NCBI GenBank assembly: GCA_965116475.1
Contig: OZ220691.1
Span: forward strand, 1,024,001-1,088,000
Direction of reading: 5' to 3'
DNA: 64,000 nt
Origin: Gemmatimonadota bacterium
Lineage (GTDB): Bacteria > Gemmatimonadota > Gemmatimonadetes > Palauibacterales > Palauibacteraceae
In this document: positions 52,586 to 64,000 of the stretch, one piece after another
Layout of the letters: each line of letters opens with the position of its first letter
How positions within the stretch are numbered: position 1 is the stretch's first letter
Notes under the pieces: model-generated
Seen by the model: the letters and a program-made list of their open reading frames with translations, nothing else
Told to the model about the DNA's origin: nothing
Database searches by the model: none
Position numbers and translations under genes: made by a program

Positions 52586-53287
52586 ATGGCAGTGCGCGAC
52601 ACGGCAGCCGCCCGGACCGACGGCGTCTGGAAGGTCTTCCAGCAGGAAGCCGAATCTGTGCAGGCGGTCCGCGACGTCAGCCTGACCGTAGAACGTGGCG
52701 AGTTCACCGCGCTGGCGGGGCCGTCGGGGTCCGGCAAGACGACGCTGCTGAATCTGATCGGTGGTCTCACCCGCCCCACGCAGGGACGGGTCTGGGTCGC
52801 CGGGCGGGAGGTGAGCCGCATGTCGAACCAGGAGCTCGCGCGGCTCCGGCTCGAGGAGGTGGGCTTCGTCTTCCAGGCCTATAACCTGCTCCCCGTGCTC
52901 TCCGCGCTGGAGAATGCGGAATTCCCGATGCTGCTCCAGGGCGTGCCCGCGGAGGAGCGTCAGGCGCGGGTCCGCGAACTCTTTGCGCGGACGGGAATGG
53001 AAGGGCTCGAAGACCGGCGCCCGGGCAAGCTGTCCGGCGGCCAGCAGCAGCGCGTCGCCGTCGTGCGCGCGGTGGCCAGCCGTCCGGCCCTGGTGCTCGC
53101 GGACGAGCCGACGGCGAACCTCGACTCGGTCACGAGCGAAGCGCTCCTCGATGTCATGGGCGAGTTGAATCGCGACCTCGGGGTGACCTTCGTCTTCGCC
53201 ACCCATGACGGCCGCGTCATGGAGCGGTCTCGGCGCCTGGTCCGCATGGTCGACGGCACCGTGCGTGACGACGAACGCCGATCCTAG
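52586..53287 (+). CDS. LolD-like ABC ATP-binding protein
   Basis: GPSGSGKTT, LSGGQQQRVA, LADEPTANLD, ATHD. Confidence 0.93.
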   Translation: MAVRDTAAARTDGVWKVFQQEAESVQAVRDVSLTVERGEFTALAGPSGSGKTTLLNLIGGLTRPTQGRVWVAGREVSRMSNQELARLRLEEVGFVFQAYNLLPVLSALENAEFPMLLQGVPAEERQARVRELFARTGMEGLEDRRPGKLSGGQQQRVAVVRAVASRPALVLADEPTANLDSVTSEALLDVMGELNRDLGVTFVFATHDGRVMERSRRLVRMVDGTVRDDERRS

Positions 53288-53360
53288 AACCTGTCCCGGT
53301 CGCCTGTACGGCGTGCCACCCGCCTGGACACCGCACCGGTCATCGCCTGAGGCGCGAGCA

Positions 53361-54476
53361 ATGGACATCCACGAAGCGATAGCGATCAGCCAGGAGCGAT
53401 TGGCGGGGGAAGGCGCCACCATGCATGACCTGCTCGGGCCCCTGCGAGACAGAATCGCTCCCGTACTGATCGGGGAGCAGGAGTGGGAACACGTGCTGGC
53501 GCGGGCGGGAACCCTGCCGATCACCATGGGTGCCCAGCCGTTCGGTTTCGAGCTGCCGCTGCACGACCGTCGGCCGCGGGCGGATTTCGGCGTCTCGCTG
53601 GCGAGCGGCAACCGGTCGGGGGCGTTTTTCGAAGAGAAGGCGCGACGCGATCCATCGGATCGCACGGCGGCGGCGGTCCGTCGCCTGTTTCGCAGCATGG
53701 AGGCCGCGGACTCGCCCCTCCGCGCCATTGTCGGCCGCAAGCTGATGCTGGAATACGACATCGGGTCGGGGGGCGACGGCGATCCGCTGCCGGGGATGTT
53801 CCTGCGGCCCAACGAACGCACGATCGCCGGCGGCGCCGGGCAGCAGCACGATGTCGGCGTCGTGGTCGACGGACTCGTGGCCTGTCACGACCTGGAACCG
53901 AGCGCGGCGGAGCGGAGCAACGCCGAGCGGGTGTATCTGGCGCAACCGGAAGATACCCGCCTCGACTCCTTCGGCCTGTTTCCGTCACGCGCACGCACGA
54001 TCCGCCTGGCGATCATGGGCTTTGCCGGGCAGCGGGATGTCTGTTCCTTTCTCGAGGAAATCGCCTGGCCCGGCAACATCGCGACCGTGGAGACGGTGCT
54101 TGCACGCTTCAGCGAGCGCGCGGACATCGTCAGGACCGGCGTGAACGTCGACGCGCAGGCGGATGGCATCGGTCCGGCGCTCGGCCTGACGCCCATAGTC
54201 AGGCAGAGATATGCGGCTGATTCCCGGGTCTGGATCGATGGTTTGACGGATTGGCAGCCGGTGCTGGAGGCCCTGCGCCACGAAGACCGTGTAGTGCCGG
54301 AGAAGGTCGCGGCGCTGGCCGGCTGGGTCTCGCAACCGACCCTTCTGTTTGGCAGAACCGGGCGGTTTGTACTGATGCGCGGAATTCACCATCTTAAGCT
54401 GGTCATCGCCGGAGACCGGGTTGAACAGATCAAGGCCTATGTCTACATGGTGCTTTCGGGTGCCCTCGCGCCCTGA
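53361..54476 (+). CDS. Hypothetical protein, putative ABBA-type (peptide) prenyltransferase
   Basis: 371-aa soluble ORF with FGFE..L..RADF, LMLEYD, IRLAI, GIGPALGL, RGIHHLKL..IKAY. The CDS is solid; the function is inferred from motif resemblance and context. Confidence 0.55.
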   Translation: MDIHEAIAISQERLAGEGATMHDLLGPLRDRIAPVLIGEQEWEHVLARAGTLPITMGAQPFGFELPLHDRRPRADFGVSLASGNRSGAFFEEKARRDPSDRTAAAVRRLFRSMEAADSPLRAIVGRKLMLEYDIGSGGDGDPLPGMFLRPNERTIAGGAGQQHDVGVVVDGLVACHDLEPSAAERSNAERVYLAQPEDTRLDSFGLFPSRARTIRLAIMGFAGQRDVCSFLEEIAWPGNIATVETVLARFSERADIVRTGVNVDAQADGIGPALGLTPIVRQRYAADSRVWIDGLTDWQPVLEALRHEDRVVPEKVAALAGWVSQPTLLFGRTGRFVLMRGIHHLKLVIAGDRVEQIKAYVYMVLSGALAP

Positions 54477-54512: not shown

Positions 54513-55823
54513 GTGAAGGAACTCGGCAGCGGATCGTGCAGGAAGATTGCCGTCGTCGGACGCGGCACCGCGGGCGCGCTGGCCGCCGCCAGCGTATCGC
54601 GGTTGCAGCCGGAGCCCGAGCATGAGCTGCACCACATCTACGATTCACGCATTCCGATCATCGGCGTGGGCGAAGGAAGCTGGCCCGGCCTGGTCCGCGA
54701 GCTGCAGCACCTGCTGCAGTTGCCCCACGAGACGGTTCAGCAACGCCTGAACGGCACCCGCAAGTTCGGCAACCGCTTCGAGGGCTGGGGTCGACGCCGA
54801 CAGGACTTCACTCACTACTTCACGCCGCAACAGGTGGCCTACGCCTACCACCTGTCGGCGGACCTGATGGCGGAGCTGCTGTGCGCGAGTACGCAGGCCC
54901 GCCACATCGACGCGAAGGTGACCGCGATCCGGCGAGTGAACGGAGGCGCACAGGTAGAGTTCGAGGACCGTGAGTCCGAGCGCTACGACCTGGTCTTCGA
55001 TGCCCGCGGCTATCCACGGCAACTGGACCCGCAGAAGCACATCGACATTTCCTTCATCCCCACGAACTGCGCCGTCATTCGCCGCGCCCCCCCGGTCATC
55101 GAGGCGCCGCCGAACGCGCCGGTCCGGGAACCCACGTATACCCGTGCAGTGGCGCGTCCGCACGGATGGGTGTTCGTCATTCCGCTGACCGTGCACACAT
55201 CCTACGGCTATGTCTTCAACAAGGACGTGTCCGGGCTCGATGCGGTCGAGGCGGACTTCGACGAGCTGCTTGCGGAGGAGGGTGTGTCGGACTTCGAGCA
55301 GCGCGCCGTCATTCCGTTTCCGAATTTCGTCCACCGCCGGATCTATGACGGCGCCGTGGCCCGCGTCGGGAATGCCGCCGCCTTCATGGAGCCGCTCGAA
55401 GCGACCGCCATCAGGTTGGCGCAACTGCAGGTCGCGCTGATTCTGCGCATGCGGTTCCACCGGCCAGCCGAATATGTGCAGCGCGACGCGCCCGTCATCA
55501 ACCGCTTTCTGGTCACCGACGCGCTCCTGGCCGGCCTGTTCGTCGGTTGGCACTATTCCTGCGGTTCGAAGTACGACAGTGCGTTCTGGCGCAACGCCCG
55601 GGACCGCGTGTGGCCGAACCACCGCGACGCCGCCGATCCGCGGGCCGTGGACTGTTCCGCCTTGCGCAAATTCGACGAGATGATCGAACTGGTCGACGCG
55701 CAGGTCCCCGATCCGGCGGACTGGGAGCGGCAGTGCGCGTTCTTTCCCGTGAGCAGCTTCGCGCAGATAGCCCACGGCCTGGGCGTGCCATTGGAGTGGC
55801 AGCGCGACGCCCGGCCGACGTAG
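54513..55823 (+). CDS. Flavin-dependent tryptophan-halogenase family enzyme (probable peptide halogenase)
   Basis: IAVVGRGTAG, IGVGEGS, TRKFG (catalytic Lys position), GWVFVIPL, FMEPLEATAI; GGAGG RBS. Confidence 0.85.
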   Translation: MKELGSGSCRKIAVVGRGTAGALAAASVSRLQPEPEHELHHIYDSRIPIIGVGEGSWPGLVRELQHLLQLPHETVQQRLNGTRKFGNRFEGWGRRRQDFTHYFTPQQVAYAYHLSADLMAELLCASTQARHIDAKVTAIRRVNGGAQVEFEDRESERYDLVFDARGYPRQLDPQKHIDISFIPTNCAVIRRAPPVIEAPPNAPVREPTYTRAVARPHGWVFVIPLTVHTSYGYVFNKDVSGLDAVEADFDELLAEEGVSDFEQRAVIPFPNFVHRRIYDGAVARVGNAAAFMEPLEATAIRLAQLQVALILRMRFHRPAEYVQRDAPVINRFLVTDALLAGLFVGWHYSCGSKYDSAFWRNARDRVWPNHRDAADPRAVDCSALRKFDEMIELVDAQVPDPADWERQCAFFPVSSFAQIAHGLGVPLEWQRDARPT

Positions 55824-55871: not shown

Positions 55872-57044
55872 TCAGAAGTACCAGCTCAGGGAGAGATACA
55901 CGAACAGGCCCGCCAAGCCGTACTCCGAAGGCAGCGGACGGGCGGCCGTGGCGTCGTCGTCACCCAGACCGAGGAATGCGCCCGTGACCACCGCCACATC
56001 GTTACTGGCTGAGTAGGCGACGCTCGGGCCCATCGTTGCGCTCCGGTCGTTCAGGTTCCAGAGCACGAGACTGCTCAGGCTCCAGAGCGGATGCACCTGG
56101 TAGGACGCCCGGACGACCGCCTCGTCCCGTCCGAGCACCTGATGTTCGCCGCGCAGGAATGTGGCCGATCCCAGGGTGGCCAGGTACGCGTCCGGTCCGT
56201 CCGCGCCCAGGCCGTCGCGCTGGTACTCGGCCGCGAGCGTCAGGTCCCTCCCGCCGACCTGGAGCTGCCGGTCGAGACCGAGCGTGCCGCGGAGAACGAC
56301 CCGGTCCGGGAGTTTGCGCAGCACGGCCTCCCCTCGGACGGCCCAGCCTCCCAACGATCCGGCCGCGCCGAGGGCCCCCGCCGGATCCCCGTACACGATC
56401 CCGCCCCATGCCGAGACTTCCCAGTTCCGCACCGTCGTGAGACCGCGTATCAGCGCAGTCACCTCCTCCTCGCCGGCCAGCGACCGGGTCGGTCTCACGA
56501 CGAGGTCGATCTCGCTCAGCGCGCTCGGAAAGAAACGGAGCCGGGCCGCGTCGACCCCGGCGCGGAACTCCCGGAACGGGTCCACCGGGTTGAAGGGCGT
56601 GTACGGATCGCTCGGCGTGAGAAAGAGCGCGGTGCCCCACGACACCGCCTGCCGCCCCACGGTGATCTCGAAGCGCTCACTCCCCCACTCGACGTACAGG
56701 CGATCGAACCGGTGCCGCCAGACGACATGGTCCCGCTCCGCCGCCGTCCACTGGAGTCGGAGCCACTCGCCGCCGCCGGGCACCGCGCCGAGGTGGAACT
56801 CGGGCGCCTGGGCGAGGCTCCGGAACGTCAGCAGATGCTCGTAGGCGGCGCCGAATCCAAAGGCTCCCGCGCCCCACTCTCCGAAGAGTCGCACCCGGTT
56901 GAACTCGCCCAACTGGCCTTCACGGGTCCCGACGAGAGGAATGGCCTGGACGTAGCCGTTCAGCTGCATGGCCTGACCGGATGAAGTGTCGCAGAGAGCC
57001 GAGAGCAGCACGGCCGCGCAGGCGGCCCCGGCGCGAAGCCTCAC
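55872..57044 (-). CDS. Outer-membrane beta-barrel protein of the type accompanying LolA-like/ABC modules
   Basis: GGAGG then GTG at 57044, signal peptide, DRLYVEW, VGRQAVSWG, GVDAAR, terminal LSWYF. Confidence 0.75.
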   Translation of the reverse strand: MRLRAGAACAAVLLSALCDTSSGQAMQLNGYVQAIPLVGTREGQLGEFNRVRLFGEWGAGAFGFGAAYEHLLTFRSLAQAPEFHLGAVPGGGEWLRLQWTAAERDHVVWRHRFDRLYVEWGSERFEITVGRQAVSWGTALFLTPSDPYTPFNPVDPFREFRAGVDAARLRFFPSALSEIDLVVRPTRSLAGEEEVTALIRGLTTVRNWEVSAWGGIVYGDPAGALGAAGSLGGWAVRGEAVLRKLPDRVVLRGTLGLDRQLQVGGRDLTLAAEYQRDGLGADGPDAYLATLGSATFLRGEHQVLGRDEAVVRASYQVHPLWSLSSLVLWNLNDRSATMGPSVAYSASNDVAVVTGAFLGLGDDDATAARPLPSEYGLAGLFVYLSLSWYF

Positions 57045-57282
57045 CGTCCCTGGAACCTCCGCTCCCACGGTCCATCGGTGAGCCTCGGCATCATCCTCCC
57101 CCCGTTCGCGCCCACGGTCACGCCGACACCGGCAATCTACATTCTCAGCGTAGTACCGAACACTCGGCGGCGATTCCGACACCTGCACTGCGTACTCGGA
57201 CGTCCTATATTCCCCCGATTCTCCGCTCAATCCGAACGGGATTGTCCGTGCTCGATACCTGGTGGGGAGGCGAGGCAGGGTC

Positions 57283-57834
57283 GTGTTCAATAATCCGTTT
57301 GATTCGTTTCACGACACCGTTGCTGAAGCAAAGCAGGAACGGGAACAACTCGACCGGCTGCTGACGATTTCCACGCCCCGGGAGCGTCTGCTCGTCGCCG
57401 GCGTCGGGCTGTGGTTGTTGATCTTCGTGACGTGGCTCTTCTTCGGTAACGTAGCCCGCAGCCTCGCGGTGGACGGTGTGCTCGTCGACCCCGGCACAAA
57501 CCTGTCCGAAGCCGGCCGGTCCGTGCAGGCGCTGGTCTGGATCGAGAACGACGTCGCGCCGCAGATCAGGGCAGGGATGCCGGCGGTGATGGAGCTGGGT
57601 GCGGCGGCTGGAGAAGCGGGCGCGATGAGCGCAGAAGTCGCGGCGATTTCCGCCGTTCGCTCGTCCGAGGTTCCCGCCGCCTTCGAGTCTGCGGTGCCGA
57701 TGTCGTTGCACCGCCTCGATATCGCGCTGGACGAGAACCTCGACCTTGCCGCCATGGCGGGCAGGGAATGCCGGATCGTCATCGATATGGGCACGCAGTC
57801 TCCGGTCGCGTTCTTGCGGATGGGGCGGTCATGA
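57283..57834 (+). CDS. Short NHLM bacteriocin system secretion (HlyD-like) protein
   Basis: EQLDRLLTISTPRERL-TM-FG..DGVLV matches the NHLM membrane-fusion protein N-terminus; only about 183 aa. Confidence 0.7.
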   Translation: MFNNPFDSFHDTVAEAKQEREQLDRLLTISTPRERLLVAGVGLWLLIFVTWLFFGNVARSLAVDGVLVDPGTNLSEAGRSVQALVWIENDVAPQIRAGMPAVMELGAAAGEAGAMSAEVAAISAVRSSEVPAAFESAVPMSLHRLDIALDENLDLAAMAGRECRIVIDMGTQSPVAFLRMGRS

Positions 57835-57835
57835 T

Positions 57836-60046
57836 ATGGCGCTGACCGCCTTCGGGCGCGCTGGCGACAAGGCCGCACCGAGCGTCGAGACACGGCGGAT
57901 CACCACGCCGATCCTGTTGCAGATGCACGCGTCGGAATGTGGCGCCGCCTGCCTCGGCAGCATCCTCGCCTACTTCGGACGCTGGGTTCCGCTGACGGAA
58001 TTGCGGGAAAGATGCGAGGTGAGTCGGGACGGGAGCAGTGCGGCGAGCATCGCGCGCGCCGCCAGGCACTACGGCCTCGAATGCAGCGGACTCAGCCTGC
58101 GCGCCAGTCAGCTGAAGAAGTTGCAGTTGCCTCTGATCGTGTTCTGGCAGTTCAGCCATTTCGTTGTCCTCGAGGGGTTCGACAGTCGCCACTTCTATCT
58201 CAATGATCCGTCCACGGGGCGGCGCAGGCTTTCGGCGGAAGAGTTCGAAAAGGGCTACAGCGGGATTGCGCTGCGATTCAAGCGGGGCTCCGGTTTCAGA
58301 CCCGGCGGCGAACAGCCCGGATTGTTCACGCAGTTGGGCACCCTGCTCGCCGGATCGCGGAGCGTGCTTGCCTGGGTGATTGCCTGCGGTCTCATGTTGA
58401 CGCTGCTGGCCCTTGTCGTCCCCGCATCCCTCAGCGTGTTCGTGGACGATGTTCTGGAGAACCGGGGCCCCTGGGGCGGGCTCGTGGCTGCCCTGCTCGG
58501 CGGCGGCATCCTCGTGTACGTCCTGTCCCTGCTCAAGCATCGGTTCCTGAAGCGGTTCGCGGTTCGGATCTCGGTGATTGGCTACAGTCGAGGCCTGTCG
58601 CGGCTGCTGCGGCTGCCGGTGGAGTTTTTCGAACACCGTCTCGTAGGCGATCTGACGGATCGAGTCTCGTCCATCGACAGAATCGCCAGGAACCTGACGG
58701 AACAGTTCCTGGTGCTCGTTATCGACATGGGAATGAGCGCCGTGCTGCTCGTTGCCATGTTGGTCTACGATGTCCGGCTCACGCTGGTTGTGTTGCTTCT
58801 GGCCTTTCTGCACGGCGTGCTGGCGCACTTTCTCAACGGGCTCAGGGCGGTGCGAAGCCAGGCGATGAGGCGCGAACAGGGACTGTTGATCGGCGTCGGC
58901 ATGCAGATGCTGAATCACGCCGACAATCTGCGCATGACGGGATCGGACGACCGTCTGTTTTCGCGCTGGAGCGGCCATCAGGCGCGCGAACTGGAGGCCC
59001 GCCGGCACTATTCCGCGCTCGGCTCGGTCAACACCGCGCTCCCGGGCATGATCGCCGCACTTCGCAGCGCGGCGGTCCTGGCCATCGGGGGAAGCCTGAT
59101 CCTGGCCGGAGAGATGACCCTGGGCGCGCTGGTCGGGTTCTATATCCTGGCCGAGATGTTCCTGTCGCCGGTTGGGCGCTTCCTGGAGTTCGCCGGGCAG
59201 CGCCAGGCGCTCGAAACCGATCTGCAGCGACTCGAGGATATCTCGAAGGCCGCGGAAGACCCCGCCTTCAGCCGCCGGAGTCCGCAGTCGGAGTCGATTC
59301 CCACCTTCAAGGGCCGGTTCCAGCTCACCGGCCGGCTCGAGCTGCGAGACGTCAGCTTCGGCTTCAACAAGAGCCGGCCCGCTCTGATCAAGGACTTCAA
59401 TCTCGTAATCATGCCGGGGCAGCGGGTTGCCGTGGTCGGTCCCAGCGGATCCGGCAAGTCGACCCTCGCGCGTCTGATTGGCGGTCTCTATCAGCCCTGG
59501 TCCGGCGAAATCCTGTTCGATGGCCACCCCCGGGATGAGATTCCCGAGGAGGTGCTGCGGCGGTCCATCTCCATGGTGGATCAGGAGGTCGTGCTCTTTT
59601 CCGCGTCCGTGCGCGACAACATCACCCTGTGGAACCCCGCCGTTCCGGATGAGGCCATCTTCGCGGCGACACGCGATGCCCAGATCCACGACGAAATCCT
59701 GCTGCGGCCGAACGGGTACTCGACCCGGGTCGAGGAAGGCGGCGTGAATTTCAGCGGCGGCCAGCGCCAGCGGCTGGAGATCGCCCGGGGGCTGCTGGGC
59801 AATCCGACGCTGCTCATTCTGGATGAGGCGACCAGCGCCCTCGACGCCGCGACGGAGGAATACGTCGATGACGCCCTGAGACGTCGCGGAGTCACCTGCC
59901 TGATCGTGGCGCACCGGCTGAGCACCGTGCGGGACTGCGACGAGATCATCGTGCTCGACAAGGGCGTCGAGGTGCAGCGCGGGACGCATGACGAGCTGAT
60001 GGCGGACCAGGCCGGCACGTACTACAAGCTGGTCAGGTCCGGCTGA
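57836..60046 (+). CDS. NHLM bacteriocin system ABC transporter, C39 peptidase/permease/ATPase
   Basis: TPILLQMHASECGAACL (catalytic Cys), VSRDGS, HFVVLEG, NDP, GPSGSGKST, FSGGQRQRLEIAR. Confidence 0.93.
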   Translation: MALTAFGRAGDKAAPSVETRRITTPILLQMHASECGAACLGSILAYFGRWVPLTELRERCEVSRDGSSAASIARAARHYGLECSGLSLRASQLKKLQLPLIVFWQFSHFVVLEGFDSRHFYLNDPSTGRRRLSAEEFEKGYSGIALRFKRGSGFRPGGEQPGLFTQLGTLLAGSRSVLAWVIACGLMLTLLALVVPASLSVFVDDVLENRGPWGGLVAALLGGGILVYVLSLLKHRFLKRFAVRISVIGYSRGLSRLLRLPVEFFEHRLVGDLTDRVSSIDRIARNLTEQFLVLVIDMGMSAVLLVAMLVYDVRLTLVVLLLAFLHGVLAHFLNGLRAVRSQAMRREQGLLIGVGMQMLNHADNLRMTGSDDRLFSRWSGHQARELEARRHYSALGSVNTALPGMIAALRSAAVLAIGGSLILAGEMTLGALVGFYILAEMFLSPVGRFLEFAGQRQALETDLQRLEDISKAAEDPAFSRRSPQSESIPTFKGRFQLTGRLELRDVSFGFNKSRPALIKDFNLVIMPGQRVAVVGPSGSGKSTLARLIGGLYQPWSGEILFDGHPRDEIPEEVLRRSISMVDQEVVLFSASVRDNITLWNPAVPDEAIFAATRDAQIHDEILLRPNGYSTRVEEGGVNFSGGQRQRLEIARGLLGNPTLLILDEATSALDAATEEYVDDALRRRGVTCLIVAHRLSTVRDCDEIIVLDKGVEVQRGTHDELMADQAGTYYKLVRSG

Positions 60047-62982
60047 TGCGGGACACGAGGCCGGGGTACACGTCCATCGCGGAACTCGCCGCCCGCTCCG
60101 GCGAGTCCGTGCCCTGCGCCGGCAACCTGCCGGTGAAGCTCGACGATCCGGACACTGTCTGGTTCATCGATCAGGGCGCCGTCAATCTGTTCCTGGTCGA
60201 ATTCAAGGACGGGGTCGAGCAGGCGGCGCCGCAGCACCTGCTGCGCCGCGAATCGGGCTGGCTGCTGCCGGGCGTCGCGCCGGACGGACCAAACGATGAG
60301 GAAGACACCACGCTCAGCCTGATCGCCAAGGGATCGCCGGGCACCGTCCTGAAACGGCTGTCGGCCTCCGTGCTGTCCGAGGTCGATCCGGCGGAGATGG
60401 CGGAACAGACCGATACCTGGCTGACCGCGATCACGGACACACTCTCGCGTTTTGCGAGCCGCCTTCCGCGTCCGACGGTGCTGGCCAAGCCCGGTCCGAT
60501 GCGGACCCCGGCTCCCTGTACGCTGTCCGTACAGCGCGGCGTCGTATGGGTGTCCGAACCGCCGCGCGGCACCAGCCTCTTCATGGACCTGGTCGACCAG
60601 GCGGAAATCGTCGAGGCGGACGGCTCACACGAAGCGGTGATACCGCTGACGCGAACAAGCTGGATCATCCTGTCCGACGAGGTGACACTCTCGGGCTGGT
60701 CGACGGAGACGCTGGCACAGCGGGGCGTCCTGCTCCCGGCGCTCGCATCCTTCCACGCGGTTGCCTTCGCCCTGGAGCGCCTCAACCGCCGACTGGCCGT
60801 GGTCGATGATGCGAACCTGGAGCGCGCGCGGACCACGAGCCGCCGCACGGTCGAGAGGGCCGCGCGGCAGCGGCTCTTCAATATCTATGATCTGCCGATC
60901 GACCGGGAGACCAGTGTCGAGGACACGTCGCTGGCGGACGCCCTGCAGGCGATCGGACGCCGTGAAGGAATCGATTTCAAGATCCCGGTGCGCTCGGATC
61001 CTTCCGGTCCTCCGGTCAGCCTCGTTGACGTTCTCGATGCTTCGGGCGTGCGCGCCCGGCGCGTGCGGTTCGGGGCCGAGGGCGCCTGGTGGCGCGGCGA
61101 CAGCAACGCGATGCTGGCATTTCGCGCCGAAGACGGCCAACCCGTGGCGCTCCTGCCAGGATGGCTGGGCCGCTACCGGGAATTCGATCCGGTCAGCAAG
61201 CGCAGCGTTCGGATGACGGCGGATCGTGCCGCTGCGCTGGCGGATGGGGCCTGGGTGTTCTACCGGCCACTGCCGGTGGGGAACGTGCAACCGGCGGACC
61301 TGCTGAGGATCGCGCTGCATGGATCGGCGGCGGATCTGGCGCGGCTGGTGATGGCCGGGCTTCCGGGCGGCCTGATCAAGCTCGTGCCGGCGTTCGCGCT
61401 CGGGTTCGTTGCGAACCAGACGGCGGCGGGCGGAAGTGCCGGAGCGCTCTATGCCGTGGCCGTGGCGGTGGCGGGGTTCGGCCTGCTCGGCGCACTGCTG
61501 CACCTGTTTCAGGGCACGGTGATGATGCGGATCGAGGGTCGCTCTTCACGGGTCGAAGCGGCCTTCTGGGACCGTCTCATGCGCCTTCCGCCAAGCATGT
61601 TGCACGGCCGTCGGGCCGGCGATCTGGCCGTGTCGGGAATGACGTTCCAGAATCTTCGCGACGGGTTGCAGGGAGTCGCGGCCGACGGCCTGCTGTCGAT
61701 CATTTTTCTGCTCCCGGTGCTTGGCGTCATCTTCCTCTACGATGCCACGCTGGGGACCGTTGCCCTCGCCTTCAGCCTGGCTTCGCTCCTGATCACCGTC
61801 GTCCTCGGGCTGCGCCAGATTCCGCCCTATGGCCGGATGATCCGCGCGGCGCGGCGCGTCTCCGGCCGGCTATTCCAGATCGTGGGCAGCATCGGCAAGC
61901 TGCGTGTGGAAAACGCGGAAGCGTCGGCTTTCGCCATCTGGGCGCAGGACTACCGGGAGCAGAAACGCACGGAACTCGAGCTGGGCGCGCTCGAGGGACA
62001 TTCGCGGGCATTCGGTGCCGCGCTCCCCCTGCTTGCCGCCGGGGTCCTGCTGTTCGCGGCCGTAGCCGTGGACGGGCCCCTCCCGGTCGGCGATTTTCTC
62101 GTCGTCTACCTTGTCTTCATCGCCTTCCAGTCCGCCGTCGCCCGACTCGGCGAGTCCTTTGGCGCGGTCGCCGCCGTGCTCCCGGCGTTCGACCAGATGC
62201 GCCCGCTCCTGGCGGCGGTTCCCGAGGCCGAAGTCGAAGGAGCGCCGGTCGAGTATCTGGGCGGCGACATTTTCTTCGACCGCATTTCCTACCGGTACGA
62301 CCCCGACGGCCCGTTGATCCTCGACGACGTCACGATTCATGCCCGCCCCGGGGAATTCGTCGCGATCGCGGGCGAGTCCGGCGCCGGCAAGAGCACCCTC
62401 TTCCGGTTGGCGCTTGGATTCGACCGGCCCACGTCCGGCGCCGTGTACTACGACGGACGTGACCTGAGGAACCTGAACCTGAAACAGGTGCGCCGCAGGA
62501 TCGGCGTGGTGCCGCAATCCGTTGGACTCCATCCCCTGGATCTCTGGGACAACCTGGTCGGTCACCACGATGAGGTGGCGAGCGACGAGGTCTGGAGCGC
62601 GGCGCGCGTCGCCGATGTCGAAGCGGAGATCAAGGGCATGCCCATGGGCATGATGACCATGGTCGGCACGAGCGGGAATGTCCTGTCGGGCGGCGAGAGT
62701 CAGCGCGTTTCAATCGCCCGGTCGGTGATCGGCAGCCCGCGAATCATGCTCTTCGACGAGGCGACCAACTGGCTGGATAACGAGAGCCAGGCAAAGGTCA
62801 TGCAAAACCTCACCGCCCTGACCTCCACCCGCGTCGTCATCGCGCACCGCCTGTCCACGCTGGAGCAGGCCGATCGCATCTACGTGTTGAAGGCGGGAAG
62901 AGTCGTGCAGAGCGGCTCCTTCAACGAACTCATGGAGGTCGACGGGGTGTTCAGAGACCTGGTCAAGAGGCAGGTCGCCTGA
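60046..62982 (+). CDS. NHLM bacteriocin system ABC transporter, second (peptidase-less) ATP-binding subunit
   Basis: TGATG coupling; long N-terminal extension, ASGVRARRV..WWRGD, WDRLMRLP, GESGAGKST, LSGGESQR, FDEATN. Confidence 0.9.
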   Translation: MRDTRPGYTSIAELAARSGESVPCAGNLPVKLDDPDTVWFIDQGAVNLFLVEFKDGVEQAAPQHLLRRESGWLLPGVAPDGPNDEEDTTLSLIAKGSPGTVLKRLSASVLSEVDPAEMAEQTDTWLTAITDTLSRFASRLPRPTVLAKPGPMRTPAPCTLSVQRGVVWVSEPPRGTSLFMDLVDQAEIVEADGSHEAVIPLTRTSWIILSDEVTLSGWSTETLAQRGVLLPALASFHAVAFALERLNRRLAVVDDANLERARTTSRRTVERAARQRLFNIYDLPIDRETSVEDTSLADALQAIGRREGIDFKIPVRSDPSGPPVSLVDVLDASGVRARRVRFGAEGAWWRGDSNAMLAFRAEDGQPVALLPGWLGRYREFDPVSKRSVRMTADRAAALADGAWVFYRPLPVGNVQPADLLRIALHGSAADLARLVMAGLPGGLIKLVPAFALGFVANQTAAGGSAGALYAVAVAVAGFGLLGALLHLFQGTVMMRIEGRSSRVEAAFWDRLMRLPPSMLHGRRAGDLAVSGMTFQNLRDGLQGVAADGLLSIIFLLPVLGVIFLYDATLGTVALAFSLASLLITVVLGLRQIPPYGRMIRAARRVSGRLFQIVGSIGKLRVENAEASAFAIWAQDYREQKRTELELGALEGHSRAFGAALPLLAAGVLLFAAVAVDGPLPVGDFLVVYLVFIAFQSAVARLGESFGAVAAVLPAFDQMRPLLAAVPEAEVEGAPVEYLGGDIFFDRISYRYDPDGPLILDDVTIHARPGEFVAIAGESGAGKSTLFRLALGFDRPTSGAVYYDGRDLRNLNLKQVRRRIGVVPQSVGLHPLDLWDNLVGHHDEVASDEVWSAARVADVEAEIKGMPMGMMTMVGTSGNVLSGGESQRVSIARSVIGSPRIMLFDEATNWLDNESQAKVMQNLTALTSTRVVIAHRLSTLEQADRIYVLKAGRVVQSGSFNELMEVDGVFRDLVKRQVA

Positions 62983-63017
62983 ACCGAATCGGCAGACCGG
63001 AGCATTTCGAGACATCG

Positions 63018-64000
63018 ATGAACGGACCCATGGACGCGGACGATCTCCTCGTATCAAGAGCTCTCGTATCAAGAGCTGATGAAGACGGCGACTTTCGCGA
63101 ACGTCTTCTCCGAAAACCCAGGGAGACCATCGAGACGGAATTCGGCGTGACGCTGGCCGAGGACCATGAGATTCACGTGCACGAAGAGACGTATACCGCG
63201 ACGCACGTGGTGCTCCCGCCGCGGAGCAAGCTCAGCGAGGCCGAACGAGAGGCGGCGAGGACCGGTGCGGCATCGCTCGAGTTTCTTCGAAGGACACTCC
63301 ACGACCCCGCACCACCGCTCCGCCCTCCCGCAGGGCAGGAAGAGGGGGGCCGATGCAGCGGGGCCTCCCCGGAGGCGCTGGCCGGCGCGGCGAGGGAAGG
63401 GATCCGCCGCGGGCTCGCCTTCCTGGAATCCACGATCGACGAGAATGGGGCTTGGCACTGCATCCGGTTCAACGTGGCCGACCCGGAGATCCCCAGGCAT
63501 TTCGAGAGGCCCCCCTTCGTGTCGGCTCTCTGCGTGCTTGCCCTTGAGAGCTCCGATGAGCCGCGGGCCAAGGCGATTTGCACCGCTACGAAGGCATATC
63601 TCATCGACACCATCGAATATCCCGGATTCTGGCGGTACTACCGCCACCTCCCGCCGGATCTCGATAGTACTGCACTCTGTTCGCTCGTCATCGGGACGCA
63701 CCCCTGGATCTTGCTTGGAAGGAACGTTCCGGGGATGCTGGCGAATCGCGACGAGGAAGGCCGCTTCATGACCTGGGTGCTGGCGGAAGACGAACCCGAC
63801 GTCGTGTCGCGCTTTCGCATCGAGGCCGACCCGGTCGTCAATGCGAATGTCCTCGCCTGCCTCGGCGACCATCCGGAAACGAGGGATGCCCAGCTCTGGC
63901 TGGAAGCCCTGGTAACCGAAGGCAACCTCGAGGGCTCGTCGAAGTGGTATCCCGACACGGTCACGATCTACCATGCGATCACACGCGCGATGGTCTGTGC
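63018..64000 (+). CDS. NHLP leader-like domain fused to a class II terpene cyclase/prenyltransferase-squalene-oxidase-repeat-like domain (runs off the right edge; absent from the ORF track)
   Basis: Open for 327 codons from ATG 63018: ...LVSRADEDGDFRERLLRKPRETIETEFGVTLAEDHEIHVHEETYTATHVVLPPRSKLSEAEREAARTG..., then GIRRGLAFLESTIDENGAW, GFWRYY..LPPDLDSTA, DPVVNANVL, SKWYP. Confidence 0.8.
   Translation, partial: MNGPMDADDLLVSRALVSRADEDGDFRERLLRKPRETIETEFGVTLAEDHEIHVHEETYTATHVVLPPRSKLSEAEREAARTGAASLEFLRRTLHDPAPPLRPPAGQEEGGRCSGASPEALAGAAREGIRRGLAFLESTIDENGAWHCIRFNVADPEIPRHFERPPFVSALCVLALESSDEPRAKAICTATKAYLIDTIEYPGFWRYYRHLPPDLDSTALCSLVIGTHPWILLGRNVPGMLANRDEEGRFMTWVLAEDEPDVVSRFRIEADPVVNANVLACLGDHPETRDAQLWLEALVTEGNLEGSSKWYPDTVTIYHAITRAMVC
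63048..63077 (+). repeat. Exact 15-bp in-frame duplication (LVSRA x2)
   Basis: ctcgtatcaagagct at 63048 and 63063. Confidence 0.95.

Follow-up and report, generated by a model that had tools for sequence, protein, structure and literature searches.

A diverged leader-like domain fused to a predicted class II terpene cyclase in the srp cluster of a Gemmatimonadota bacterium

We analysed a stretch of 64,000 nucleotides (hereafter the window) from a Gemmatimonadota bacterium (assembly GCA_965116475.1, contig OZ220691.1, positions 1,024,001 to 1,088,000 of the forward strand), at the end of which a gene (63018-64000, forward strand, continuing beyond the window) encodes an N-terminal domain resembling the leader peptides known as nitrile-hydratase-like (NHLP) joined to a C-terminal domain with a predicted terpene cyclase fold. 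This fusion gene is a core gene of the published srp cluster, which encodes a peptide made on the ribosome and modified after its translation (RiPP), and not an orphan oddity. The reading that we prefer, and consider on balance probable if only by a little, is that the protein is a conserved srp tailoring enzyme, composed of a cyclase and of a diverged copy of the NHLP leader serving as its built-in adaptor, and that it acts on the precursor SrpE after prenylation by the protein encoded at 53361-54476.

According to this reading, an alpha-beta-beta-alpha (ABBA)-type prenyltransferase, the 53361-54476 protein, would put a prenyl chain on the SrpE precursor, the likeliest acceptor being the C-terminal Trp of the core LCCCW, which is also the site of bromination by SrpI. 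Asp216 (D216) of the fusion protein would then protonate the terminal double bond of the prenyl chain, so that cyclization could start. The N-terminal 83 residues would be a copy of the precursor's NHLP leader that has diverged and is not itself a substrate, after which come 21 conserved residues and a neutral spacer. As an adaptor, they would place the cyclase in the leader-dependent machinery, i.e. the cyclodehydratase SrpC, the prenyltransferase or the exporter, and the cyclase would so meet the leader-bound, prenylated peptide before export. Our inferences concern the substrate, the length of the chain and, most of all, docking as the role of the leader-like domain.

The fusion gene and its distribution

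A preliminary description of the window, made from its letters alone, had noted an uninterrupted frame from an ATG at 63018 to the window end. This frame is indeed open for 327 amino acids, and in the whole-genome sequence it continues to a stop codon 334 bases beyond the window, giving a protein of 438 amino acids (P0001; L002:519-1835). The protein consists of the NHLP leader-like domain (residues 8-83, 63039-63266), a conserved segment (residues 84-104, AASLEFLRRTLHDPAPPLRPP, 63267-63329; 78% mean identity), a variable spacer holding a run of G (residues 105-118, 63330-63371; 28% mean identity) and the predicted monodomain class II terpene cyclase, an alpha/alpha toroid (residues 119-438, 63372-64000 and on beyond the window). 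The Pro-rich linker that had been described after the leader-like domain is present as DPAPPLRPPAG.

A search of 5.8 billion proteins gave 1108 matches at E ≤ 0.001 among the 8000 scored. The 119 close homologues (the best 120 listed minus P0001 itself) are 76-91% identical to the fusion protein, 395-466 amino acids long and cover 90-100% of the query; where their source names them at all, they are called 'hypothetical protein' or, wrongly, 'nitrile hydratase subunit alpha'. A genome collection was also scanned with the pattern DPVVNAN (63828-63848), which had been pointed out, as DPVVNANVL, in the preliminary description and is the most conserved stretch of the family. At least 599 stretches matched, at least 450 of them encoding a relative, and the best 80 loci were analysed. 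All 80 hold the fusion, with 71-90% identity, and their record titles name at least 10 phylum-level groups (Gemmatimonadota, Alpha- and Gammaproteobacteria, Binatia, Nitrospirales, Bryobacterales, Chloroflexota, Latescibacterota, Nitrospinota and others).

The ratio of non-synonymous to synonymous substitution rates (dN/dS), determined on a codon alignment of these 80 sequences with 300 random pairs, was 0.15 both in residues 84-104 and in the cyclase domain, 0.26 in the NHLP domain and 0.96 in residues 105-118. Therefore, both domains and the post-leader segment are kept by selection. With the fusion retained in all 80 loci and both of its domains under purifying selection, the earlier proposal of a natural leader-enzyme fusion is borne out.

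Among 61 relatives of the window's genome, seven carry the fusion, the window's genome being one of the seven, all of them in one genus, within which it was found in six of 35 other species. This patchy distribution fits the horizontal spread reported for the srp cluster. In one relative of the same genus, a copy 89% identical to that of the window has a TGA inside the match (G016:C90:3175-4461), and either the gene is broken there or the sequence may be in error. A more distant type of fusion (P0122, 58% identical) was found by a metagenome scan in one 1.9-kb contig, without gene context.

The assignment to srp derives from the genes around the fusion. A whole-genome search with the NHLP leader model TIGR03793 gave four matches, one of them above cut-off (66.9 bits). 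This is the precursor SrpE, 85 amino acids long, ending in ...EAISAG/LCCCW and encoded on the reverse strand about 2.7 kb beyond the window (L002:4251-4508). Directly downstream of the fusion lies the gene of a fused E1-like/YcaO enzyme (TIGR03882, E 1e-42; TIGR03604, E 9e-83). The LCCCW core, the E1-like/YcaO enzyme, a Trp halogenase and two NHLM exporter subunits together identify the locus as the srp cluster published from sponge microbiomes. The candidate role of the fusion as the precursor of the cluster was ruled out by the separate SrpE gene, which scores above the NHLP cut-off.

In the accessible parts of the srp literature (PMC10286304, PMC10858898, PMC12455567, PMC12426817), the published cluster shares with the present locus the LCCCW core, the NHLP precursor, the E1-like/YcaO enzyme, the flavin halogenase and the NHLM exporters, and both are spread over many phyla of sponge symbionts. 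SrpC is reported there to convert the three Cys of the SrpE core LCCCW to thiazolines, and SrpI to be a leader-dependent Trp-6 brominase of the C-terminal Trp (PMC10858898, PMC10286304). The activity of SrpC on SrpE alone in Escherichia coli is described as poor and partial, and the reconstituted system therefore lacks a component, although this does not single out the fusion. These parts of the srp work treat SrpE, SrpC and SrpI alone, and contain no mention of the fusion open reading frame, of a prenyltransferase or of a cyclase. A 2025 review, in the part accessible, describes the srp cluster as cryptic and as exceptionally abundant in sponges (PMC12426817).

The leader-like domain

Residues 13-79 of the fusion protein match TIGR03793 (leader_NHLP) with E 4.4e-12 and 45.7 bits, and the fusion scored 49.5 bits in the whole-genome search; PF02979 (NHase_alpha) is matched with 28.0 bits, just above its cut-off of 27.2. 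Compared with solved structures, residues 1-104 retrieved nitrile hydratase alpha chains (E 1.5e-6) and the nuclear magnetic resonance structure of an NHLP, 8TB1 (E 8e-4, residues 15-77). Residues 7-83 align with the entire leader of SrpE (32% identity over 77 amino acids, BLASTP E 6e-14), and the alignment ends exactly at the Gly preceding the SrpE core, i.e. at the cleavage site. The domain is made up of three helices and a beta hairpin, followed by a short helix ending at the invariant G83. The NHLP character ascribed to residues 1-83 from the letters alone is thus corroborated by the TIGR03793 match, by the 8TB1 match and by the alignment to the SrpE leader.

The two other TIGR03793 matches of the genome, both below threshold, belong to a true nitrile hydratase alpha gene (L005:961-1752, about 1190257-1191048 of the contig; 263 amino acids), whose product has a His-Asp repeat near the N-terminus and which is followed downstream by a beta-like gene. 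When SrpE was searched against longer proteins for other NHLP-enzyme fusions, eight matches were obtained, mostly over-long calls of SrpE genes, none of them informative.

With respect to the NHLP (proteusin) precursors represented by TIGR03793 and 8TB1, the fusion protein matches the leader from end to end, with its structured helical nucleus, its Pro-rich stretch and its terminal Gly, and is likewise encoded beside an NHLM exporter and a cyclodehydratase of the TOMM type (microcins modified with thiazole/oxazole). In contrast, it has no short modifiable core after the leader-like domain, which is followed instead by a 355-amino-acid enzyme; it has Arg for the second Leu of the L(X)4L motif, Ala at -4 and a score below cut-off.

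The L(X)4L motif deserves closer attention. It is placed at -12 to -7 from the cleavage site in the accessible part of PMC10858898, according to which SrpI requires both Leu, the RiPP recognition element (RRE) of LynD is bound by this motif as well, and the motif's binding is likened to that of a Nif11 leader to the peptidase LahT, with both Leu in hydrophobic pockets. The canonical motif and a Gly-Gly type cleavage site are absent from the fusion, which retains of them only the Gly at -1 and the residue at -12. Of the 80 loci, 75 have Phe, Leu, Tyr or Ile at -12 and 65 have Thr at -2; Glu at -8, Arg at -7 (where the motif has its second Leu), Ala at -4 and Gly at -1 occur in all 80. The 25 SrpE genes compared, out of 64, have Ile or Leu at -12, Leu or Met at -7, Ile or Val at -4 and Ala-Gly at -2/-1. 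The leader-like domain looks, from these sequences, like a module kept folded but changed where SrpE acts as a substrate for the halogenase, and, if the LahT analogy holds, the same changes would touch positions of a peptidase substrate.

The 21 residues after G83 (ASLEFLRKTLHDPAPPxRP) are located where a core peptide would be, and they are as conserved as the enzyme; S86, L87, L90, T93, D96-P99 and R102 are invariant in the 39 aligned fusions. In this genome only, a perfect 15-bp tandem duplication (2.0 copies of CTCGTATCAAGAGCT, 63048-63077) lengthens helix 1 of the NHLP domain by five residues, LVSRA, which are missing from the fusion homologues compared; the contigs of sequencing runs X1 and X2 carry the duplication unchanged. 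The insertion could matter, because helix 1 contacts the RRE of the cyclodehydratase in the paper on MprE/MprC.

For the leader, the preliminary description had offered activation in cis, docking or an export tag as possible roles. As to how an adaptor might work, one possibility, which we put forward tentatively and regard as rather doubtful, is that the leader-like domain is a natural leader mimic, sitting in a leader-binding site of the srp machinery (e.g. on the exporter, or in one of the RREs of an SrpC dimer) and assembling a complex in which the precursor would be heterocyclized, brominated, prenylated and cyclized without release. If true, this would be the first natural RiPP tailoring enzyme recruited by imitating the leader of its own substrate, and would explain the poor performance of SrpC when expressed with SrpE alone. 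A prediction of the complex between SrpC (771 amino acids, 23 sequences aligned) and the fusion's residues 1-104 (39 sequences aligned) gave no support, scoring 0.00 in both runs, performed without controls, which speaks neither for nor against binding.

The leader-like domain could instead be an export tag: the exporter encoded directly upstream would recognize it, its C39 peptidase would cut behind G83, and the cyclase, once in the periplasm or outside, would cyclize the prenylated peptide after removal of that peptide's own leader. A class II cyclase needs no cofactor, and could therefore work outside the cytoplasm; the fusion gene begins 35 bases behind the two NHLM exporter genes; and Gly at -1 and Glu at -8 are invariant and -12 is mostly Phe, Leu, Tyr or Ile, with the alignment to SrpE running exactly to the Gly of the cleavage site. 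We nevertheless consider an export tag unlikely. Arg at -7, Ala at -4 and, in most loci, Thr at -2 stand where SrpE keeps hydrophobic residues and Ala, and the parallel with LahT, as far as the accessible text of PMC10858898 gives it, has both Leu in hydrophobic pockets. Moreover, a released protein would not be expected to start with a stretch as conserved as the 21 residues that follow G83, and the cargo of such transporters is usually a small peptide, not a folded enzyme of 355 amino acids. The loss of the second Leu therefore modestly favours a docking or adaptor role over a cleaved export tag.

Quite improbable, in our judgement, is that the domain serves substrate capture, by a leader-to-leader pairing of its NHLP fold with that of SrpE, or self-regulation, with the NHLP domain and residues 84-104 acting as a lid or activator on their own cyclase. 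Such self-regulation would be nature's equivalent of engineered leader-enzyme fusions. Selection on the segment 84-104 as strong as that on the enzyme agrees with such roles, as do the modelling of residues 91-120 with a predicted local distance difference test (pLDDT) score of 74-84, at a predicted template modelling (pTM) score of 0.81 for the whole chain, and the component absent from the published reconstitutions, in which SrpC is reported to be poor and partial on SrpE alone. On the other hand, NHLP-NHLP pairing is not described in the parts of the NHLP literature examined.

Precursor-derived sequence and enzyme are known to share one polypeptide in two other settings. In borosin precursors of the OphMA type, the enzyme forms the N-terminal part and acts on the core at its own C-terminus, and in engineered leader-enzyme fusions a leader is joined to an enzyme that binds that leader. 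Unlike both, the srp fusion carries the leader-like domain on a tailoring enzyme without a known leader-binding site. It is a natural experiment on the use of structured NHLP leaders as protein-protein modules, a question now under study for SrpI, MprC and DprM. Should the domain serve for docking, it could be used to draw foreign enzymes into pathways guided by a leader.

The cyclase domain and its prenyltransferase partner

The toroid domain begins with GLAFLESTIDENGAW, which had been described as a QW-like repeat and does align with the first repeat region of squalene-hopene cyclase (SHC). TIGR01787 is matched by the fusion with E 1.7e-4. An exhaustive search among 1.84 billion representatives yielded 1297 relatives of the cyclase domain at E ≤ 0.001. 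Most of these are stand-alone proteins of about 300-340 amino acids aligning with residues ~117-433, while some pair the cyclase domain with a cytochrome P450, DUF2332, acyltransferase, sulfotransferase or weak Trp_DMAT-like domain.

Compared with sequences of the Protein Data Bank (PDB), a profile of 91 homologues matched the class II domain of the drimenol synthase AsDMS (E 7e-29, profile positions 28-315 of 325) and SHC (E 1e-25). The AlphaFold2 model of the fusion (pLDDT 87.0, pTM 0.81) had as its best Foldseek matches AsDMS (E 3e-12), MstE (2e-9), two squalene-hopene-cyclase-like proteins of ~345 amino acids, SsDMS and SHC. In the VIA comparison, AsDMS reached Z 31.5 (root mean square deviation 2.3 Å over 282 residues, model residues 120-433), MstE 27.8 and SHC 26.4, with unrelated alpha/alpha barrels at Z 19.1 or less. 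[quoted passage not shown] A match to the NHLP hidden Markov model and a cyclase fold downstream had been named beforehand as the test on which the interpretation of the gene would stand or fall; both were found, and the interpretation stands.

The acidic motif (63657-63668) had been called DxDD-like. Its position and its general-acid Asp stand, whereas the DxDD pattern does not: the motif is DxDS, i.e. DLDS (D214-S217), all four residues being invariant in the 39 fusion proteins. D216, the presumed general acid, is invariant together with N277, Q388 and G392 in the 91-member family alignment, where the wider consensus around it is LPPDLDDT, and it aligns with the Asn of the D333N mutant chain of AsDMS, that is, with the catalytic D333. 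In AsDMS, which is an active enzyme, the motif is DLDT and departs from DxDD in the same manner.

AsDMS (9M7D-F, 9MHS) and MstE (PDB 6SBB-6SBG) resemble the fusion in fold and in the general-acid Asp, and AsDMS also in its DLD[ST]T-type motif; they differ from it in sequence (16-20% identity to the fusion cyclase) and in having small molecules, not peptides, as substrates. The N-terminus of AsDMS is a HAD phosphatase domain, where the fusion has its NHLP domain. Other toroid proteins were considered and discarded: there was no match to the LanC family that would support a LanC-like cyclase, and the beta subunit of a protein prenyltransferase is not supported either (Prenyltrans E 0.21; geranylgeranyl transferase beta chains E 0.3-0.9 against the family profile).

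The candidate partner is encoded on the forward strand within a frame at 53205-54476, whose start is placed at 53361 by 747 homologues, giving a protein of 371 amino acids present in 71 of the 80 loci. The protein is unannotated: the frame has no Pfam or NCBIfam match, none of the 747 homologues has a Pfam domain, and those named in their source are 'hypothetical'. It is predicted to be an ABBA (indole-type) prenyltransferase. In a comparison of its AlphaFold2 model (pLDDT 88.5) with 48,161 representative chains, performed without Foldseek, the best 19 were all ABBA prenyltransferases, including MpnD, CymD, 6-DMATS, FgaPT2, NphB, PatF and PagF, with Z 10.6-16.8, and the next chain had 6.2; Foldseek was concordant. 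A protein-atlas search placed a prenyltransferase cluster at rank 12, with a score of 0.90 and low recognition, a weak lead.

The srp prenyltransferase profile also matches the N-terminal domain of seven proteins of 650-700 amino acids that bear a C-terminal cyclase domain (hhalign 95.7%, E 9e-9, 238 columns), and the two srp proteins are therefore one protein elsewhere. Direct BLASTP with the 53205 frame gave nothing against the fused protein P0205 and E 0.002 against P0202, so that this link rests on profile comparison. Taken with the model, this makes the 53361-54476 protein the likely partner, presumably making the substrate of the cyclase.

A precedent for such a pair is available. NctPC, as described in the accessible part of PMC13290415, is a fusion of an ABBA prenyltransferase and an MstE-like cyclase, which puts a C20 chain onto a Trp of a ribosomal peptide and then cyclizes it; the precedent of ribosomal peptides with cyclized isoprenoids, already cited in the preliminary description, exists in NctPC and ChrPC (PMC13290415). 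As far as they can be set beside srp by that description, NctPC and ChrPC (Hubrich et al., Chem 2024) share with it the ABBA-like P and MstE-like C domains, the ribosomal peptide and the Trp acceptor, which in srp is a probable one. They differ in having P and C in one protein, while srp has them in separate genes (53361-54476 and 63018 onward), and in lacking the N-terminal NHLP leader-like domain of the srp cyclase. The srp peptide, unlike the substrates of these PC enzymes as described, is also thiazoline-bearing and brominated. By analogy with NctPC and ChrPC, prenylation of the core, probably at Trp, followed by cyclization appears likely, and this suggests that the srp product carries a cyclized terpene lipid.

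Several observations weigh against the reading preferred here. Both NHLP scores of the fusion (45.7 and 49.5 bits) lie under the curated NCBIfam cut-off of 50.9 bits. As L(X)4L has lost its second Leu, canonical leader-RRE binding is also weakened, which makes docking on SrpC in the usual manner doubtful. For the cyclase, PF13243 gave a single repeat match below threshold (23.4 bits against a cut-off of 26.1), and the third Asp of a full DxDD motif is Ser. Finally, no prenylated or cyclized srp product is reported in the accessible srp literature, which calls the product cryptic and which leaves the founding 2021 paper and the Chem 2024 paper outside the search.

The last three of these observations would also be consistent with a toroid that is not a catalyst at all, but a scaffold, or a protein that binds the lipidated product or gives self-protection against it, its cyclase likeness being mere ancestry. 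This seems very unlikely to us, since D216, N277, Q388 and G392 are invariant in 91 sequences, the same kind of motif is found in an active enzyme, and elsewhere the cyclase domain is found, in the manner of tailoring enzymes, in fusions with prenyltransferase-like, P450 and acyltransferase domains.

The srp cluster itself, prenylation followed by class II cyclization of a ribosomal peptide, and monodomain class II cyclases are already known. The searchable literature, which does not cover the founding srp paper, contains neither the prenyltransferase and cyclase activities of srp, nor their split over two genes, nor a cyclase with a diverged NHLP copy; in it, NHLP leaders are never combined with terpene cyclases, nor RiPP terms with 'class II terpene cyclase', and SrpD is not named. 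Five years after its description, the product and purpose of srp are still cryptic, with two srp enzymes studied and incomplete reconstitutions. Reading the two proteins as prenyltransferase and cyclase leads to a testable product class, namely a brominated, thiazoline-bearing peptide with a cyclized terpene, and to a list of genes to be added to srp co-expression.

Integrity of the gene and the surrounding srp cluster

It should be noted that the run of G lies in the linker and is a homopolymer, so that a sequencing indel might have made one gene out of two, a stand-alone precursor gene and that of a separate enzyme, but this is practically negligible, because one frame crosses the linker in all 80 best loci, the 119 listed close homologues cover 90-100% of the query, the dN/dS values show selection on both sides, and contigs of three DNA-type runs (X1, X2 and X3) span the run without an indel; a frameshift artefact is thereby ruled out. 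The contigs of X1 and X2 are identical to the window and possibly come from the source sample, so they are not independent. The preliminary description had itself singled out an indel at this place as a danger to its interpretation, and the spanning contigs hold none that breaks the frame. The run sits in the 14-residue spacer, which evolves neutrally and in which the frame is never broken; one contig of an RNA library, from a relative, has a one-base loss and a one-base gain two bases apart at the run, with the frame kept. In the sponge metatranscriptome run X18, contigs from close relatives cover most of the gene (window positions 62900-64000, e.g. 63285-63782), which fits transcription but may also reflect DNA carry-over.

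The genes of the cluster were counted in the 80 loci by tblastn with the proteins of the window's genome, many loci being cut by contig ends. The fusion was found in 80/80, ABC2 in 73/80, ABC1 in 72/80, the prenyltransferase-like gene and YcaO each in 71/80, and a membrane desaturase-like/GlnE-like fusion in 67/80. A true SrpE gene (60% identity or more) is present in 64 loci, with the end LCCCW in 63 of them and LCCSW in one; the other 16 tblastn matches of SrpE are cross-hits to the NHLP domain of the fusion itself. In the present genome, the SrpE gene converges on the YcaO gene, while its place and strand differ in other genomes.

Between the prenyltransferase and the fusion, the forward strand of the window holds further genes of the cluster. 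A flavin-dependent tryptophan halogenase (54513-55823; PF04820, E 4.9e-46; 52 of 80 loci) stands in the place of SrpI. It is followed by a short HlyD-like protein of 190 amino acids (57262-57834; 53 of 80 loci), of which the N-terminal ~50 residues match the 421-position model TIGR03794 (E 0.0018), so that it does not represent a membrane fusion protein of the normal kind. Next come the two subunits of the NHLM exporter, one with a C39 peptidase domain (57746-60046; TIGR03796, E 1.8e-252; PF03412, E 1e-34) and one without a peptidase domain (60046-62982; TIGR03797, E 2.8e-197).

The desaturase/GlnE-like protein (L002:4626-6713, reverse strand) has 695 amino acids and joins a di-iron domain of the membrane fatty-acid desaturase type (PF00487, E 2.5e-21) to a GlnE-like nucleotidyltransferase domain (PF03710, E 4e-8). 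Its gene lies between the cyclase and YcaO genes in most related loci (e.g. L041:11415-13774). The accessible papers assign it no function; it may oxidize the terpene or the thiazolines. A further frame of 472 amino acids lies on the reverse strand inside the cluster (55872-57290), with a weak match to DUF1302 (E 5e-4); it was found in seven of the 80 related loci, and looks like an insertion in this lineage.

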